A DNA stretch of 39,416 bases from Candidatus Shapirobacteria bacterium (lineage in GTDB: Bacteria > Patescibacteriota > Microgenomatia > UBA12405): assembly GCA_026395315.1 (NCBI GenBank), contig JAPLYY010000069.1:1-39416 (forward strand), given 5' to 3'. The notes under the pieces were generated by a model, which made no database searches, had not been told where the DNA came from, and saw nothing but the letters and a program-made list of their open reading frames with translations. The position numbers were made by a program, and so were the translations under genes. Positions 3,901-39,325 of this stretch are shown here, piece after piece (the stretch's first letter is position 1; each line of letters starts with the position of its first letter).

Positions 3901-4649
3901 CCATGAGCCTCTCTGACAGCTTAGTCATCGCTGGTCAACTTAGTGTTCAAGGCACCACCAATCTAAGTCAATTAATTGCCGATGTCGCCAAGTTCAATGC
4001 CATTGAAACCACTTTAGCTCGCGTCGATTCCATCGAGGCGGCCAATACCGCTCTCTACATCCAACCCAGTAAATTAGGATCAGTCCACATCATGGGTGAA
4101 ACCCTGGTTATCACCGATGCCGGTTCAGTCGAAATCAACGGCAACCTGGCTGTTAGTGGCTTGGCTCGACTCAACAACGTTGAGGCGGCTGAAATTAAAT
4201 CTGCCTCCCTCTTTGCCAAATTAATCACTACCGACGAATTAATCACTAAAAAACTTACTACTGATCAGCTAAATGTTGCTACTGACTCCGCCACTATGAT
4301 TATTGCTGACAGCGGCTTTGCCAAGCTGGCTACCAGTTCTGCCCAAATCAACAGCAACGCCGTCGCCGGTACTGCCATCCTGCCTGCCGGTAAAACCGAG
4401 CTGGTCATCAACAATCCCAAAGTCACCGCCGCCTCCATGGTTTACCTCACCCCCAACGGTTCTACCAATAACCAGGTTCTCTACATTAAAGACAAATCTG
4501 TATCTAATGTAGAGACGTTCCGCGGAACGTCTCTACCAAACGACGCCCAAACCGCTACCCCATCGGCTTCTCCCACCCCCAGCTTCACCATTGCTCTCGA
4601 CCAACCCCTCGCCACCGACATTCAGGTTAACTGGTGGATTATAAATTAA
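819..4649 (+). CDS. Giant fibre/adhesin-like surface protein (1276 aa).
   Basis: Long ORF with at least 10 copies of the N-V-G-I-G-T-T-x-P-x-Y-x-L-x-V motif between Gly/Ser/Thr-rich segments. The C-terminal domain of roughly 70-95 aa ends in NWWIIN and is shared with the next gene. The function is inferred from composition only. Confidence 0.8.
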   Translation: MQNFVTSPVVGATVGATDAQTLTLGHGFRTTKGAIFAETSGNVGIGTTNPAYKLVVAGDSYLYNPGSNTTLRAVSAGNIVFSQNFNDAGVDFSNNAGGVMRYTFSNAAVGIGTTSLSVRLQVLGSDANAQLGAGVNSALRLTNTNGGASGYLSEIQFGTADATHIFAAIGGGVVDTGNNTRGFISFGIRPTATDANLTEAMRVNYNGNVGIGTTSPAYKLDVAGDVNISGTFRINGTALAAGGNVSTTGGTTGYLPKFSSGTAIVNSAVFETGGNVGIGTTDTSHSNLTVIGTAGTAVEIVLGNSDSVFGSTGSGLALFLGTASGNTYGVIQSVISGGTNNGNLILQPTGGNVGIGTSSPDYPLDIVSATSYQAQFKSTAASNFARIILNGASTKGADIIFQEAGNTQWGIYSNGTAASSSLGFYPQDGATPALTISSSGWVGINGVGAVSPLTVNGGISAGSYYGTAAPSNGMIISGNVGIGTTNPDYLLDFHGVGNFTQLGIGGTNTLYLLNVGGTAKFNNLLASNNVGIGTTSPGAQMDISSATGGILRLSSNAANFEGTNTAGELQFYTSDASINASGVASAIKYISGTTWNQTGHDGRLGFFLTPSLNGGAGIGLTEVMTISNNRNVGIGTTNPLYPLHVVGTGSSGVALFSNTTSGNTMPVVVIQTAGSGTTGAADAAEFIRFLNSAGNKAGRIRIGQTAASVVYSVSATADFAEYVIASEPTEAGDLISFSNGKYSKSTLDKPLAGIHSSDPSFVGNENIMDQPNAFPMAMSGVVRLKVSSINGPINPGDPLTASSINGVAAKAITAGNIAARAAEYYTNPDPNHVGMIGVILNLSWYDPDVFLTDTGQVGINYNVSSDVLSSLGYSGSKNEIETAQYNLADSLGKPVSRLAQFAQVAAGKITTGLLSVENIIAKNIVAESTKSKKISTAIITPLSDLSSTITVEGNLNIANTLSAVDASISGTLYAKNIVSDNITALRDQIRSFISSSTEPSSAGPSAIAQASQDWTYDIGTSQVTVTGSMSLSDSLVIAGQLSVQGTTNLSQLIADVAKFNAIETTLARVDSIEAANTALYIQPSKLGSVHIMGETLVITDAGSVEINGNLAVSGLARLNNVEAAEIKSASLFAKLITTDELITKKLTTDQLNVATDSATMIIADSGFAKLATSSAQINSNAVAGTAILPAGKTELVINNPKVTAASMVYLTPNGSTNNQVLYIKDKSVSNVETFRGTSLPNDAQTATPSASPTPSFTIALDQPLATDIQVNWWIIN
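4509..4536. repeat. 28-bp perfect palindrome inside the fibre CDS (family C-like).
   Basis: The sequence gtagagacgttccg|cggaacgtctctac is flanked by TGTA...TACCA. It encodes VETFRGTSL within a segment that is missing from the paralogous domain of the next gene. Confidence 0.85.
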
Positions 4650-4685
4650 ACCCTAACCCTACCCTTTCCCTTGACAGGGCAAGGG
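4648..4685 (-). repeat. Family A element, G-tract-tail subtype, reverse orientation.
   Basis: Sequence aaaccctaaccctaccctttcccttgacagggcaaggg. It starts inside the TAA stop codon of 819..4649. Confidence 0.85.
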
Positions 4686-4690
4686 TTTTA

Positions 4691-4733
4691 GGCTCCCCTG
4701 TCAAGTGGAGCTGGCCGAAGGACTGAGGGGTTT
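4691..4733 (+). repeat. Family A element, variable-hairpin subtype, slightly degenerate.
   Basis: Sequence ggctcccctgtcaagtggagctggccgaaggactgaggggttt. It has two stem mismatches relative to the copies at 12620 and 23666. Confidence 0.85.
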
Positions 4734-4764
4734 GTTCTATTATTAATTTACTTTATACTTATCT

Positions 4765-39000: not shown

Positions 39001-39246
39001 GGTTGATAATGGCACACTTTCCGTTGTCTGTGGCACGAAGATCTGTTTTAGAATCGAAATCGCCCAAAACAACATAATTAAATACAATACTCCCTTAATA
39101 ATTTGACTTGGCCCAATCTCAATTCTCTTAATTTTTACTCCCGGTGGCAAATTATCCGTTATCTCTTTAGGAATTTCCTGTTTTTTTTGGACTTTAGGCT
39201 TTAGACTTTTTTTAATTTTCTCCCAAATTCCCTCTTTCTTTATCAT
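36022..39246 (-). CDS. ftsH: ATP-dependent zinc metalloprotease FtsH, interrupted by an intein.
   Basis: Two N-terminal TM helices, split Walker A [18 protein letters not shown], Walker B [32 protein letters not shown] and zinc site HEAGHA. The extein length is 648 aa. Confidence 0.95.
   Translation of the reverse strand: [1074 protein letters not shown]
37198..38475 (-). mobile_element. 426-aa intein with a LAGLIDADG homing-endonuclease domain, inserted in the FtsH P-loop.
   Basis: Begins with Cys ([13 protein letters not shown]) and ends with HN|T ([13 protein letters not shown]). Contains TPEHP (block B) and [10 protein letters not shown] plus [11 protein letters not shown] (LAGLIDADG motifs). 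Confidence 0.9.
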
Positions 39247-39252
39247 CGTCAG

Positions 39253-39258
39253 ATTATA
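39253..39258 (-). promoter_or_regulatory. -10 box 6 nt upstream of the ftsH ATG (leaderless-type start).
   Basis: The minus strand reads gcTATAATctgacgATG. Confidence 0.5.
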
Positions 39259-39284
39259 GCATTTTAAATCACTAATTCAGCTTA

Positions 39285-39325
39285 GGCTCCCCTGTCAAGG
39301 GGAGCTCCCGAAGGGAGAGGGGTTT
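39285..39325 (+). repeat. Family A element, variable-hairpin subtype.
   Basis: Sequence ggctcccctgtcaaggggag-CTCCCgaaGGGAG-aggggttt. Confidence 0.9.

Follow-up and report, generated by a model that had tools for sequence, protein, structure and literature searches.

How a short, structured repeat has come to stand about once every 1.5 kb in a genome of Candidatus Shapirobacteria (CPR), what the repeat is, and what might move it are the questions raised by the 39,416-nt stretch of DNA analysed here (the window). A sequence-only reading had described a dense family of composite hairpins, and such a family is clearly present: 23 copies and one terminal fragment lie between 4648 and 39327. Their core, CCCTGTCAAGGG with at most 2 mismatches, occurs 21 times against 2.2 expected, and GARGGGTTT occurs 14 times against 1.7. 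A finder for triplex motifs that makes no use of the family's own sequence returned 26 loci compared with 0.42 ± 0.67 in 100 block shuffles, more than 50 times the number in shuffled sequence. The elements are as follows (TM, triplex motif; L120 and L121, two close relatives).

4648..4686, minus strand: G-tract TM (short loop 2), directly against the TAA stop of ORF 819-4649; inverted pair with 4691..4733
4691..4733, plus strand: TM with loop-2 hairpin GGCC-GAA-GGAC; second half of the inverted pair with 4648..4686
6026..6069, minus strand: left inverted TM of the DUF559 unit
6081..6509, plus strand: ORF of 142 aa, DUF559 (PF04480) Vsr-like PD-(D/E)XK nuclease; Pfam E=6e-28, PDB 3HRL E=2.9e-15
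6469..6510, plus strand: G-tract TM at the right end of the DUF559 unit; same sequence as 8706
8640..8683, minus strand: TM with loop-2 hairpin GTCAGCC-GC-GGCTGAC; inverted pair with 8706
8706..8747, plus strand: TM, G-tract; abuts the stop of ORF 8750-9844 (minus strand)
11909..11976, plus strand: long composite TM; purine arm interrupted by about 21 nt (hairpin TCGGCC-GC-GGCCGA)
12620..12662, plus strand: TM with hairpin GGCC-GTA-GGCC; 5 nt past the RadA stop; orthologous copy in L121, none in L120
12818..12863, plus strand: TM in frame inside RadA, encoding ..NPFPTFVGTPLDRGA..
14063..14105, plus strand: TM with short loop 2 (TCTCCCTT-GTCA-AAGGGAGA-TTT-AGAGGGA); between S1 and RadA
14177..14215, plus strand: TM, G-tract; abuts the S1 gene stop (14218)
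15995..16027, plus strand: TM with loop TTC; about 35 nt past the 5S rRNA 3' end
16271..16308, plus strand: degenerate TM; 23S-5S spacer
20839..20880, plus strand: TM with hairpin CCC-GTA-GGG; abuts the GH18 gene stop (20879)
22914..22976, plus strand: long composite TM; in frame in RimK-like ORF 22397-23413 (..NPSALRAPSSSMADLRLDRAGS..)
23487..23534, plus strand: TM with loop TTG and hairpin TCCGAC-TTTAC-GTCGGA; encodes C-terminal residues of ORF 23480-24604
23666..23708, plus strand: TM in frame in RimK-like ORF 23480-24604 (..NPSGLRPAPLDRGA..); the RimK profile match resumes beyond it
24253..24305, plus strand: TM with 8-bp hairpin GGTCCGCC-AGCT-GGCGGACC; in frame, ORF 23480-24604
24633..24678, plus strand: TM with hairpin CCCGC-CTTA-GCGGG; in frame, close to the C-terminal end of ATP-grasp ORF 24606-26153
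24696..24704, minus strand: lone inverted terminal module only (GAGGGGTTT)
25745..25782, plus strand: TM, G-tract; in frame in ORF 24606-26153 (..NPSLDRAEG..)
26089..26124, plus strand: TM, G-tract; junction of ORFs 26125-26958 and 24606-26153
34211..34255, plus strand: TM variant with loop GTGA and hairpin CGGC-GAA-GCCG; between divergent ORFs
39285..39327, plus strand: TM with hairpin CTCCC-GAA-GGGAG; upstream of FtsH, whose ORF starts at 39246

Two pairs of copies that had been reported as identical are so: 12620-12662 matches 23666-23708 at 43/43 positions, and 6469-6506 is identical to 8706-8743. The ending GA(G/A)GGGTTT, which had been ascribed to every copy, is exact in only 14; the remaining copies close with variants of it, for example ATAGGGTTT, GGTGGGTTT and GAGGGATTT. 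Element flanks often read TTTAAA or TAA, a palindromic flank being indistinguishable from an extended inverted repeat. Twenty of the 23 copies are on the plus strand, a bias that is inseparable from gene orientation in this window. The elements are dispersed repeats, and a CRISPR array, already dismissed in the earlier reading, was rejected on irregular spacings of 30 nt to 13 kb and on the presence of copies on both strands and inside genes.

Triplex motifs with a mirror arm

Each copy is a class II intrastrand triplex motif of the purine-motif type, and the family as a whole is a variant of the known BoxC/PIT/TM repeats in which many copies bear an extra hairpin. The order of parts is a 5' pyrimidine arm, loop 1 (usually TGTCAA), a purine arm, loop 2 and a 3' arm in mirror symmetry with the purine arm. 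In hairpin 1, which joins the pyrimidine and purine arms, 89% of cells were paired and 84 cells carried double changes, compared with 37 ± 4.5 in shuffled alignments; none of 500 shuffles reached 84, which also lay above the slid controls. Mirror symmetry between the 3' arm and the purine arm is complete (9/9 positions) in 88 elements and reaches at least 8/9 in 119 of 127 (mean 8.62), whereas scores were lower when the 3' arm was read as a direct repeat (7.37) or set against the arm of another element (7.44 ± 0.05). The terminal G arm is a mirror image of the first (GGGGAG to GAGGGG) and not the repeat of it that had been supposed. In addition, a T in the 3' arm often stands opposite an A of the purine arm (GGGAGGG to GGGTGGG), a change that abolishes Watson-Crick pairing with the C arm yet is allowed in a reverse-Hoogsteen third strand. 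The triads expected of the class are G*G:C together with A*A:T or T*A:T. The earlier suggestion that the C arm could pair with one G arm or the other is at odds with these arms.

The two kinds of middle module recognised earlier reappear as a bimodal loop 2, with 59 short and 60 long cases. Loop 2 measures 3-6 nt in the G-tract copies and is a hairpin of 10-25 nt in about half of the copies; the long loops include 48 predicted hairpins and 55 distinct sequences, with GAA and GTA triloops the commonest. The variable hairpin is the structured second loop of the triplex motif, so that the design of conserved arms around a hypervariable hairpin, once taken as unusual, is explained by the mirror rule and is not new in kind. 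When folded as single-stranded DNA, the elements are predicted to form two adjacent hairpins and to leave the 3' G-rich arm free. Because a loop 2 of 10-25 nt exceeds the 1-6 nt allowed for both loops in the published ITxF search (PMC4666352), the family is termed a variant here, and about half of it escapes searches restricted to short loops.

A DUF559 nuclease between inverted motifs

The description of the elements as free of ORFs was incomplete, as 7-9 copies lie inside ORFs in a single frame and one inverted pair brackets a gene. Both the bracketed gene and the in-frame copies had gone unnoticed in the sequence-only reading. The full unit spans 6026-6510 and consists of the 142-aa DUF559 ORF between two inverted motifs, with the last 13 codons and the stop codon of the ORF inside the right motif. 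DUF559 is among the commonest uncharacterised nuclease domains in bacteria, with E. coli YcjD as a member, and we know of no Vsr-fold protein of about 120-140 aa that acts as a transposase. The domain belongs to the same PD-(D/E)XK clade as VSR and DUF2726 (PMC3424549), and the Vsr-fold family includes the homing endonuclease I-Bth0305I (PMC3239194).

The association extends well beyond the window. Among metagenome loci chosen by the DUF559 protein alone (mostly CPR-like relatives, 46-73% identity), all 74 have a triplex motif within 220 nt, against a background of 0.05 per kb. An inverted motif lies upstream in 65, a forward motif downstream in 63, and both are present in 55, in a fixed polarity with the Hoogsteen arms outward. 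The MITE-type arrangement of a gene between inverted ends thus holds for the window's own unit and for 55/74 of these loci. Outside this set, evidence for the link comes from 17 loci of other phyla: DUF559 adjoins the hairpin in ten loci from several phyla that were fetched by the hairpin alone, and motifs lie beside DUF559 in six sampled plasmid or chromid loci of cultured cyanobacteria, Deinococcus and proteobacteria and at E. coli ycjD, where the motif was found by the same generic finder as used on the window. The distance is at most about 170 nt in Pseudanabaena, Azospirillum, Deinococcus, Sphingomonas and E. coli, about 220 nt in PCC 7002 and about 60 nt downstream in Photobacterium. The DUF559 stop codon often falls within the right motif, as it does in the window and in ycjD.

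The window also holds two inverted pairs with no gene between them, 4648-4733 and 8640-8747. The 19-nt spacer of the latter (8683-8706, ATAATAGGTATGAATTTTG) resembles a promoter and start codon and may be what is left of a deleted DUF559 gene. The type of copy most frequent in the window, with GGCTCCCC arms and a hairpin, is unlike either end of its DUF559 unit, which counts against an origin from DUF559 ends.

Turnover between relatives and in-frame copies

Copies differ at orthologous loci between the window, L120 and L121, as would be expected of the MITE/REP-like, recently spreading element that had been proposed; with near-identical copies also present at non-orthologous sites, that description is a fair one. 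The whole 6022-6510 segment, which holds the DUF559 unit, is absent from L121, and the unit and several copies are missing at orthologous sites of L120 or L121. The inverted pair 4648-4733 is absent from syntenic L121, and the intergenic site of the 8640/8706 pair carries no copy in L120, one in L121 and two in the window. Overall, motif load rises from 0 in 5.8 kb of L120 and about 6 in 13 kb of L121 to 23 in 35 kb of the window. Copies at non-orthologous sites are 88-94% identical in genomes that are about 80% identical overall, and the motif at 26089..26124 has a near-identical counterpart at a non-orthologous site of L121. A BrnT/BrnA cassette lies within a 759-bp indel whose edge is marked by the motif at 11909..11976. 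In the L120/L121 comparison no clean target-site duplications or exact empty sites could be defined, which counts against a mobile unit.

Within genes, 7-9 of the 23 copies are in frame, e.g. in RadA and three ATP-grasp genes, and all of them keep one open frame. RadA orthologues carry or lack the insert at one single site (12818..12863): it is absent in L120, relative to which it amounts to 60 nt, and the L121 copy at the same site bears a different loop-2 hairpin.

Proposed explanation and alternatives

The triplex motifs are, in our judgement, probably the inverted ends of DUF559 units of about 0.5 kb, with the other copies being solo ends or gene-less end-pairs that are rapidly gained and lost, mostly at gene ends. 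The architecture itself, the mirror symmetry of the 3' arm, the bracketing of DUF559, the differences between relatives and the in-frame copies are all direct observations; of these, the bracket, the in-frame intragenic copies and the gain and loss between close relatives appear to be new. For the short copies, the best reading is that they are ends of such units, either single or in pairs. Under the proposed mechanism, the pyrimidine and purine arms would form a hairpin with a loop of usually TGTCAA, and the 3' mirror arm could bind the purine arm as a reverse-Hoogsteen third strand in single-stranded DNA. Loop 2, either 3-6 nt ('G-tract') or a hairpin free to vary, would draw its two ends together. 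Two inverted motifs would end a unit of about 0.5 kb encoding the Vsr-like nuclease, and solo ends and end-pairs that lost the gene would be non-autonomous and MITE-like. Copies would land mostly at gene ends, often against a stop codon, and intragenic ones would survive only where the frame is kept, being translated as a short loop (NPS..PLDRGA). By analogy with RAYT, which is thought to act on REP/REPIN, DUF559 may mobilise the short copies by recognising and nicking the folded motif, leading to copying or loss.

Alternatively, the motifs could spread and decay by themselves through replication stalling induced by their structure, slippage, template switching or gene conversion, and DUF559 would be a separate selfish (homing-type) or repair gene inserted or kept between pre-existing inverted pairs, with the motifs as its landing site. 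We regard this as rather improbable, though it is the strongest of the competitors. Holder et al. tie the motifs to local instability without a mobility gene (PMC4666352), inverted pairs without a gene occur in E. coli as in the window, and the Vsr-fold family has a true homing endonuclease in I-Bth0305I. Furthermore, loop-2 hairpins are swapped between orthologous or near-identical copies (the RadA site; 11909 versus 22914), which fits template switching or gene conversion. A landing site, however, sits uneasily with an adjoining motif of fixed, outward polarity at every one of the 74 loci, with ORF stops inside the right motif, which look like one integrated unit, and with the apparent remnant of a DUF559 start between 8640 and 8706. 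A different challenge concerns the folded form, which might be a G-quadruplex/hairpin switch instead of a triplex. Such a switch has been proposed for the E. coli motifs, in which Kaplan et al. 2016 saw signals of both hairpins and G-quadruplexes (PMC5100583), and G-tract copies do hold four runs of at least three G in a short span, e.g. GGGAAAGGGTTAGGGATAGGG at 6483-6503. Hairpin-bearing copies lack these, having just two long G runs outside the variable hairpin, and at positions other than G, too, the 3' arm follows the purine arm in mirrored order, with A answered by A or T and C by T (AAGGCGAGG to GGAGTGGTT), which a quadruplex does not need; a switch of this kind is thus improbable.

It is very unlikely that the copies are host regulatory signals (terminators, promoters or RNA stability elements) kept for the benefit of the cell, even though many stand at gene ends, some lie past the 5S rRNA and in the 23S-5S spacer, and the loop reads TTGACA on the other strand, in a few cases with a -10-like hexamer at 16-18 nt. 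Such -35/-10 spacing is inconsistent at DUF559 units, and earlier work saw no promoter or terminator activity for PIT elements. Intrinsic terminators, i.e. a G+C hairpin with a U-run in the sense of the upstream gene, were rejected, as the scan flagged only 2/23 copies and the element, read in the direction of the gene next to it, has no U-run. The 7-9 copies within coding sequence and the copy-free orthologous sites in close relatives also speak against regulation, and purine-motif triplexes do not form in RNA (PMC4666352). Structured RNAs (a small RNA, ribozyme or translational-bypass signal) or assembly artefacts are hardly credible. The stable hairpins with covariation would suit an RNA, but an Rfam covariance-model search of the elements gave no match, whether at the gathering threshold or with E relaxed to 10, and the GNA triloops and mirror arm point to a structure at the DNA level. 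Bypass would need neither the single open frame kept by all intragenic copies nor a RadA insert of 60 nt, and numerous assemblies made independently, along with finished genomes from cultured bacteria, show the same architecture.

A broader proposal can be put forward tentatively, and we hold it to be possible rather than probable: DUF559 may be the missing partner of BoxC/PIT/TM repeats across bacteria. In a REPIN-RAYT-like manner this Vsr-fold enzyme would recognise and nick the intramolecular triplex or hairpin in DNA that is transiently single-stranded, both at the two ends of its gene and at dispersed solo copies, with copying, loss and the instability seen in E. coli as the outcome; in CPR the repeats would have expanded to about 1 per 1.5 kb and into coding sequence. 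BoxC/PIT/TM repeats have been on record since the 1990s, are present in hundreds of bacterial genomes and have been tied to genome instability. To our knowledge, no function, origin or mobilising activity has been found for them. The physical coupling of DUF559 and motif gives each a candidate partner, offers a testable lead on how these long-unexplained repeats spread, and makes both questions testable in E. coli. The tolerance of in-frame repeats within essential genes of a reduced CPR genome also bears on gene calling and on protein-family alignments.

Comparison with known systems

Rickettsia palindromic elements (RPE), which Ogata et al. in 2000 reportedly found in frame in protein-coding genes, are likewise short palindromic repeats that occupy genes in a reduced genome; they are polymorphic between orthologous genes and seem to be tolerated as extra peptide loops. 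They measure about 100-150 bp and have neither a triplex mirror arm nor an associated nuclease gene, whereas the elements of the window are shorter and have both; a sequence relationship is not expected. With IS-derived MITEs (e.g. Correia/NEMIS) the family shares short, non-autonomous copies resembling the termini of a unit with a gene, gene-less end-pairs and indel polymorphism, but it lacks a recognised transposase or demonstrable target-site duplication and consists mostly of single ends.

The closest relatives in structure are the BoxC/PIT/TM repeats (TMECO), reported from E. coli, cyanobacteria and more than 260 other prokaryotes (Holder et al. 2015, PMC4666352, which also cites Hoyne/Maher 2000 for BoxC/PIT/triplex motifs). 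In that study the isolated strand of the E. coli motif formed a triplex in vitro, and none was seen in duplex DNA or, by DMS footprinting, in vivo, which counts against the explanation favoured here. Shared features are the class II arm order, high G/C content, occurrence in many phyla, inverted heterotypic pairs and an association with local genome rearrangement. The family described here differs in the 10-25 nt hairpin that forms loop 2 in about half of its copies, in a loop 1 (TGTCAA) specific to the window's branch, and in a roughly 100-fold higher density (23 in 35 kb compared with 23 in 4.6 Mb of E. coli). It also has copies in frame inside genes, whereas those of E. coli are always intergenic, a property of E. 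coli and not part of the structural definition of triplex motifs. Finally, a DUF559 gene is bracketed here, while the 2015 survey found no mobility gene near triplex motifs (PMC4666352).

In its arrangement the family rather recalls REP/REPIN-RAYT systems: many short hairpin repeats, inverted doublets, a small nuclease gene between two inverted copies and a DNA-level hairpin as the likely substrate. The analogy is confined to the arrangement, since RAYT is a Y1 HUH enzyme and DUF559 has a Vsr-like PD-(D/E)XK fold. The elements of the window also start with a C-rich arm, have a third, mirror arm and lack a GTAG head, and no RAYT gene is among the annotated ORFs of the window. The nuclease itself is nearest to Vsr and I-Bth0305I, with which it shares a PD-(D/E)XK clade; its closest solved structure is 3HRL. 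Enzymes of this clade nick or cleave DNA at particular sites, either distorted or defined, and a mobile homing enzyme is among them; unlike the latter, the DUF559 gene of the window is free-standing, outside any intron or intein, and bracketed by triplex motifs.

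Repeat family and its architecture

The dense repeat family described in the sequence-only reading clearly exists in the window. The core CCCTGTCAAGGG has 21 matches at up to two mismatches, where 2.2 would be expected; for GARGGGTTT the figures are 14 and 1.7. The family totals 23 copies and one terminal fragment between 4648 and 39327, with 20 on the + strand, and sequence comparison of the copies reproduced the identical pairs reported earlier. A finder that relies on architecture rules alone, without any sequence motif, detected 26 loci in the window and 0.42 +/- 0.67 in shuffled sequence. 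The 13 kb from 26.1 to 39.3 kb hold a single triplex motif (34211), unlike the remaining window. As GC skew is uniformly and strongly negative over the whole window (-0.05 to -0.38 per 2 kb) and genes lie mostly on the - strand, replication and transcription are confounded as explanations of the strand bias of the repeats.

Every copy begins with a hairpin in which a C-rich arm and the G-rich arm after it enclose a loop that is mostly TGTCAA. In a set of 63 distinct copies, taken from the window and from related loci, pairing in this hairpin holds for 89% of cells, and double compensatory cells number 84, compared with 37 +/- 4.5 in shuffles; the scores of slid controls are far below those observed. 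The 3' terminal arm is a mirror image of the G arm, not a direct copy. Mirror matches cover 9 of 9 positions in 88 of 127 non-redundant elements and at least 8 in 119 (mean 8.62), whereas a direct-repeat reading gives a mean of 7.37 and the arm of another element 7.44 +/- 0.05. An A in the purine arm often stands opposite T in the 3' arm (GGGAGGG to GGGTGGG), and an odd C likewise becomes T (AAGGCGAGG to GGAGTGGTT). This mirror rule is that of a class II purine-motif intramolecular triplex, with a pyrimidine arm, a purine arm and a reverse-Hoogsteen arm. Mirror order and A-to-T substitutions are incompatible with the earlier suggestion of alternative folds, in which the C arm would form Watson-Crick pairs with either G arm, and rule out such pairing with the terminal arm. 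In single-stranded DNA folds the copies form a pair of neighbouring hairpins, and the 3' arm stays unpaired.

Loop 2, which separates the purine arm from the mirror arm, falls into two length classes, 59 of at most 8 nt and 60 longer. Since 48 of the 60 longer segments fold as hairpins and 55 of the 60 differ in sequence (with GAA and GTA the most frequent triloops), the hypervariable hairpin is a structured loop 2 whose sole constraint is that its two ends are brought together. The short-loop form corresponds to the G-tract copies. Kaplan et al. 2016 (PMC5100583) interpreted the E. coli sequences of this class as switching between G-quadruplex and hairpin, and the G-tract copies may likewise form a quadruplex, but the triplex is favoured by covariation in mirror order at positions other than G.

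Relation to a known repeat class

The architecture matches a class variously named BoxC elements (1990s), PIT elements (Hoyne and Maher) and TM or TMECO motifs, which are G/C-rich class II intrastrand triplex motifs found in more than 260 prokaryotes (Holder et al. 2015, PMC4666352). According to that study, a stable triplex forms on single strands in vitro but was seen neither in duplex DNA nor in vivo, the motifs act neither as promoters nor as terminators, their loci show unusual levels of rearrangement between strains, and transposases or integrases were 'never found' nearby. E. coli K-12 has 23 copies, all intergenic, including five inverted heterotypic pairs. The search in that study permitted loops of 1-6 nt and would therefore miss the hairpin-loop form. 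The element is thus a hairpin-loop variant of a known repeat class, at exceptional density and also inside genes in a CPR genome, whereas E. coli copies are always intergenic. The sequence-only reading was accurate in its observation and partly right in its interpretation: conserved arms around a hypervariable hairpin are indeed the design, but the element is not of an unusual kind. A search of the literature with the literal core sequence gave nothing relevant.

Hairpin-loop triplex motifs followed by arrays of perfect hairpins (e.g. GCGATTTTCGCCTTCGGCGAAAATCGC) were also seen in Firmicutes, in Ruminococcus/Oscillospiraceae MAGs (loci L002, L022, L031, L036, L057, L066, L096, L112 and others), with many copies in each genome and frequent inverted pairs spaced by 40-110 nt.

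Genomic context

A cyanobacterial origin of the window was dropped, as HIP1 occurs 0 times in it and its RadA is closest (65-83% identity) to proteins named Candidatus Shapirobacteria. No record matched its Rho protein exactly. Window genes include Rho, RadA, S1, an M23 peptidase, three ATP-grasp genes, T4SS-pilin paralogues and an intein-bearing FtsH, together with a partial rRNA operon on the - strand. Side features are:
11291-11864, - strand, BrnT toxin / CopG-type antitoxin pair
16062-22372, - strand, unusual rRNA locus
27003-29276, + strand, tandem array of small paralogous genes matching T4SS_pilin
36022-39246, - strand, FtsH homologue (1074 aa) with an intein carrying a LAGLIDADG homing endonuclease inside the AAA domain

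The order in the rRNA locus is 5S, 23S match, tRNA-Ala, VTT/DedA (20169-20816), GH18 (20879-22102) and tRNA-Ile (22297-22372), and 16S was not detected in any part of the window. The 23S match spans 3293 nt compared with a 2925-nt model, an excess of about 370 nt due to insertions, which are known from CPR rRNA genes (PMC11270868).

Coupling to DUF559 nucleases

Relative to the syntenic locus L121 of a related genome (~78-84% nucleotide identity), the window has an extra segment at 6022-6510, organized as follows:
6026-6069, inverted motif
6081-6509, + strand, 142-aa ORF
6469-6510, forward motif, providing the last codons and stop of the ORF

The ORF encodes a DUF559 protein (PF04480, E=6e-28), a Vsr-like PD-(D/E)XK nuclease with 3HRL as nearest solved relative. 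Across species-representative genomes of many phyla, the exact 18-mer hairpin was found in more than 119 loci, nearly all with the same downstream architecture, and in ten of them (Patescibacteria, Deltaproteobacteria, Firmicutes, Bacteroidetes) a DUF559 homologue directly adjoins it.

An element-unbiased test used 80 metagenome loci retrieved solely by DUF559 protein similarity, in a search seeded with an alignment of six closer sequences. Among 75 loci with both flanks of 150 nt or more, the core lay inverted within 200 nt upstream in 47, forward downstream in 42 and on both sides in 36, compared with 2 occurrences in 97 kb elsewhere in the DUF559 loci. With the motif-agnostic finder, whose flank cutoff is slightly stricter (74 loci), a triplex motif was present within 220 nt in 74/74, inverted upstream in 65, forward downstream in 63 and both in 55, against a background of 0.05 per kb. 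The polarity of the unit is fixed, with hairpins toward the gene and mirror arms outward (AAACCC...gene...GGGTTT). Outside this lineage, too, triplex motifs with lineage-specific arms and loops flank plasmid or chromid DUF559 genes of Pseudanabaena, Picosynechococcus PCC 7002, Azospirillum, Deinococcus, Sphingomonas and Photobacterium. Phage records gave few DUF559 genes (2 hits), so phages are no obvious vector.

The 3' end of E. coli K-12 ycjD falls inside a degenerate C-arm hairpin, followed by a duplicated fragment of the gene's own 3' end and, ~170 nt downstream, a canonical TMECO motif. The duplicate (GGAGACGGTGCTGGAGAATATTC..) lies in locus L209 (NC_000913.3, 1351039-1351407) between fabI and ycjD, and resembles what would remain of another DUF559 unit.

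The coupling of this repeat class to DUF559 nucleases across phyla is strong and apparently unreported, and is a more valuable result than the variant status of the repeat. No paper tying DUF559, COG2852, YcjD or Vsr-like proteins to intrastrand triplex repeats was found in a search that was thin on subscription journals, so that a prior report is possible.

Turnover between relatives

Comparison of orthologous sites in the window, L121 and its close sister L120 revealed the presence/absence polymorphism expected of mobile copies in the sequence-only reading:
4648-4733, motif pair, absent from L121
6026-6510, DUF559 unit, absent from L121
8566-8750, intergenic, no copy in L120, one in L121, two in the window
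after the RadA stop, copy present in L121 with the same hairpin (one loop base different), missing from L120
within RadA, copy missing from L120; at the same site in L121 the arms are identical and the 18-nt hairpin wholly different

Over 5.8 kb, L120 has 0 motifs where the window counterpart has five. Copies at non-orthologous sites of the window and L121 are 88-94% identical, while the two are otherwise ~80% identical. Over 43 nt, the two long composite copies (11909, 22914) share 98% identity despite different hairpins. As near-identical or orthologous arms carry different hairpins, loop 2 is swapped between copies, probably via template switching or gene conversion. The spacer between the 8640 and 8706 pair, ATAATAGGTATGAATTTTG, is similar to the short, A+T-rich leader with its ATG found in DUF559 units, which is suggestive of an internal-deletion derivative. 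TTTAAA or TAA often flank the units, a flank that is itself palindromic, and the intergenic flanks of relatives are too diverged for target-site duplications to be called.

A 759-bp indel (11304-12062) holding the BrnT/CopG-type pair is absent from L121 and ends at the long composite motif 11909-11976. The adjacent large ORFs 819-4649 (repeated GNVGIGTTxPxYKL units) and 4765-6021 have the same C-terminal ending (..NWWIIN*, ..KWWIVN*), which recurs as ..KWWIIN* in a gene that precedes a DUF559 unit at locus L162; in all three, a TAA stop is directly followed by a triplex motif.

Copies inside genes

Read on the - strand, the elements encode ..NPS-(variable)-(A)PLDRGA.. in one frame, and in-frame copies occur in several genes:
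12818-12863, - strand reading, copy in RadA
22397-23413 (ORF), - strand reading, one copy inside this RimK-like ORF
23480-24604, - strand reading, two internal copies and the C-terminus of the ORF
24606-26153, - strand reading, one internal copy and one near the C-terminus of the ORF

In the DUF559 unit, the right end is read on the opposite strand to these. The RimK profile match breaks at the insert and picks up after it. In 25 RadA orthologues, the site after SSYKxKPL either has an insert with conserved ends and variable middle or has none (P0003, P0010, P0012, P0013, P0029, P0033, P0087). The RadA insert, 60 nt at the DNA level relative to L120, encodes a segment including NPFPTFVGTPLDR, and in a poor AlphaFold2 model (mean pLDDT 58) it falls, at residues ~390-413, in a coil (pLDDT <50) between a helix and a strand. 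In-gene copies are probably translated and tolerated, much as proposed for Rickettsia palindromic elements. Translational bypass or splicing is unlikely, as all keep a single open frame.

A second, unrelated hairpin family, GGGCAGAYCC..GTRTCTGCCC (5014-5036, 5154-5176, 13825-13847, 23119-23141, 24412-24434, 28827-28849), also has several in-frame copies, reading ..EGQTHxSxHT.. in RadA and two ATP-grasp ORFs. Among RadA orthologues this repeat is present or absent at one site, where some carry another type (PTLDPSLENGG), and a third variable site reads SYAEGSG.

Possible mechanism

We infer that DUF559 would recognise the folded motif in transiently single-stranded DNA and nick it. Such a nick could promote the copying of ends or whole units as well as their loss, giving the local instability known from E. 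coli. The main rival explanation is that motifs turn over alone via replication errors induced by their structure, with DUF559, a homing-type or repair gene, residing between paired motifs. Both the universal, polar bracket and the stop codon overlapping the right motif favour one integrated unit, and they are compatible with either direction of the relationship.

A regulatory role is unlikely, as only 2 of 23 copies pass a terminator scan, on which ground terminator function was rejected, and the TTGACA loop was rejected as a -35 box for DUF559 because its distance to a -10-like hexamer is not consistent. A role as RNA is similarly unlikely, with 0 elements matched by Rfam at gathering thresholds or E up to 10, and an artefact is improbable as the source of the repeats. 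The nicking of folded motifs by DUF559 would be analogous to the action proposed for RAYT on REP/REPIN elements.
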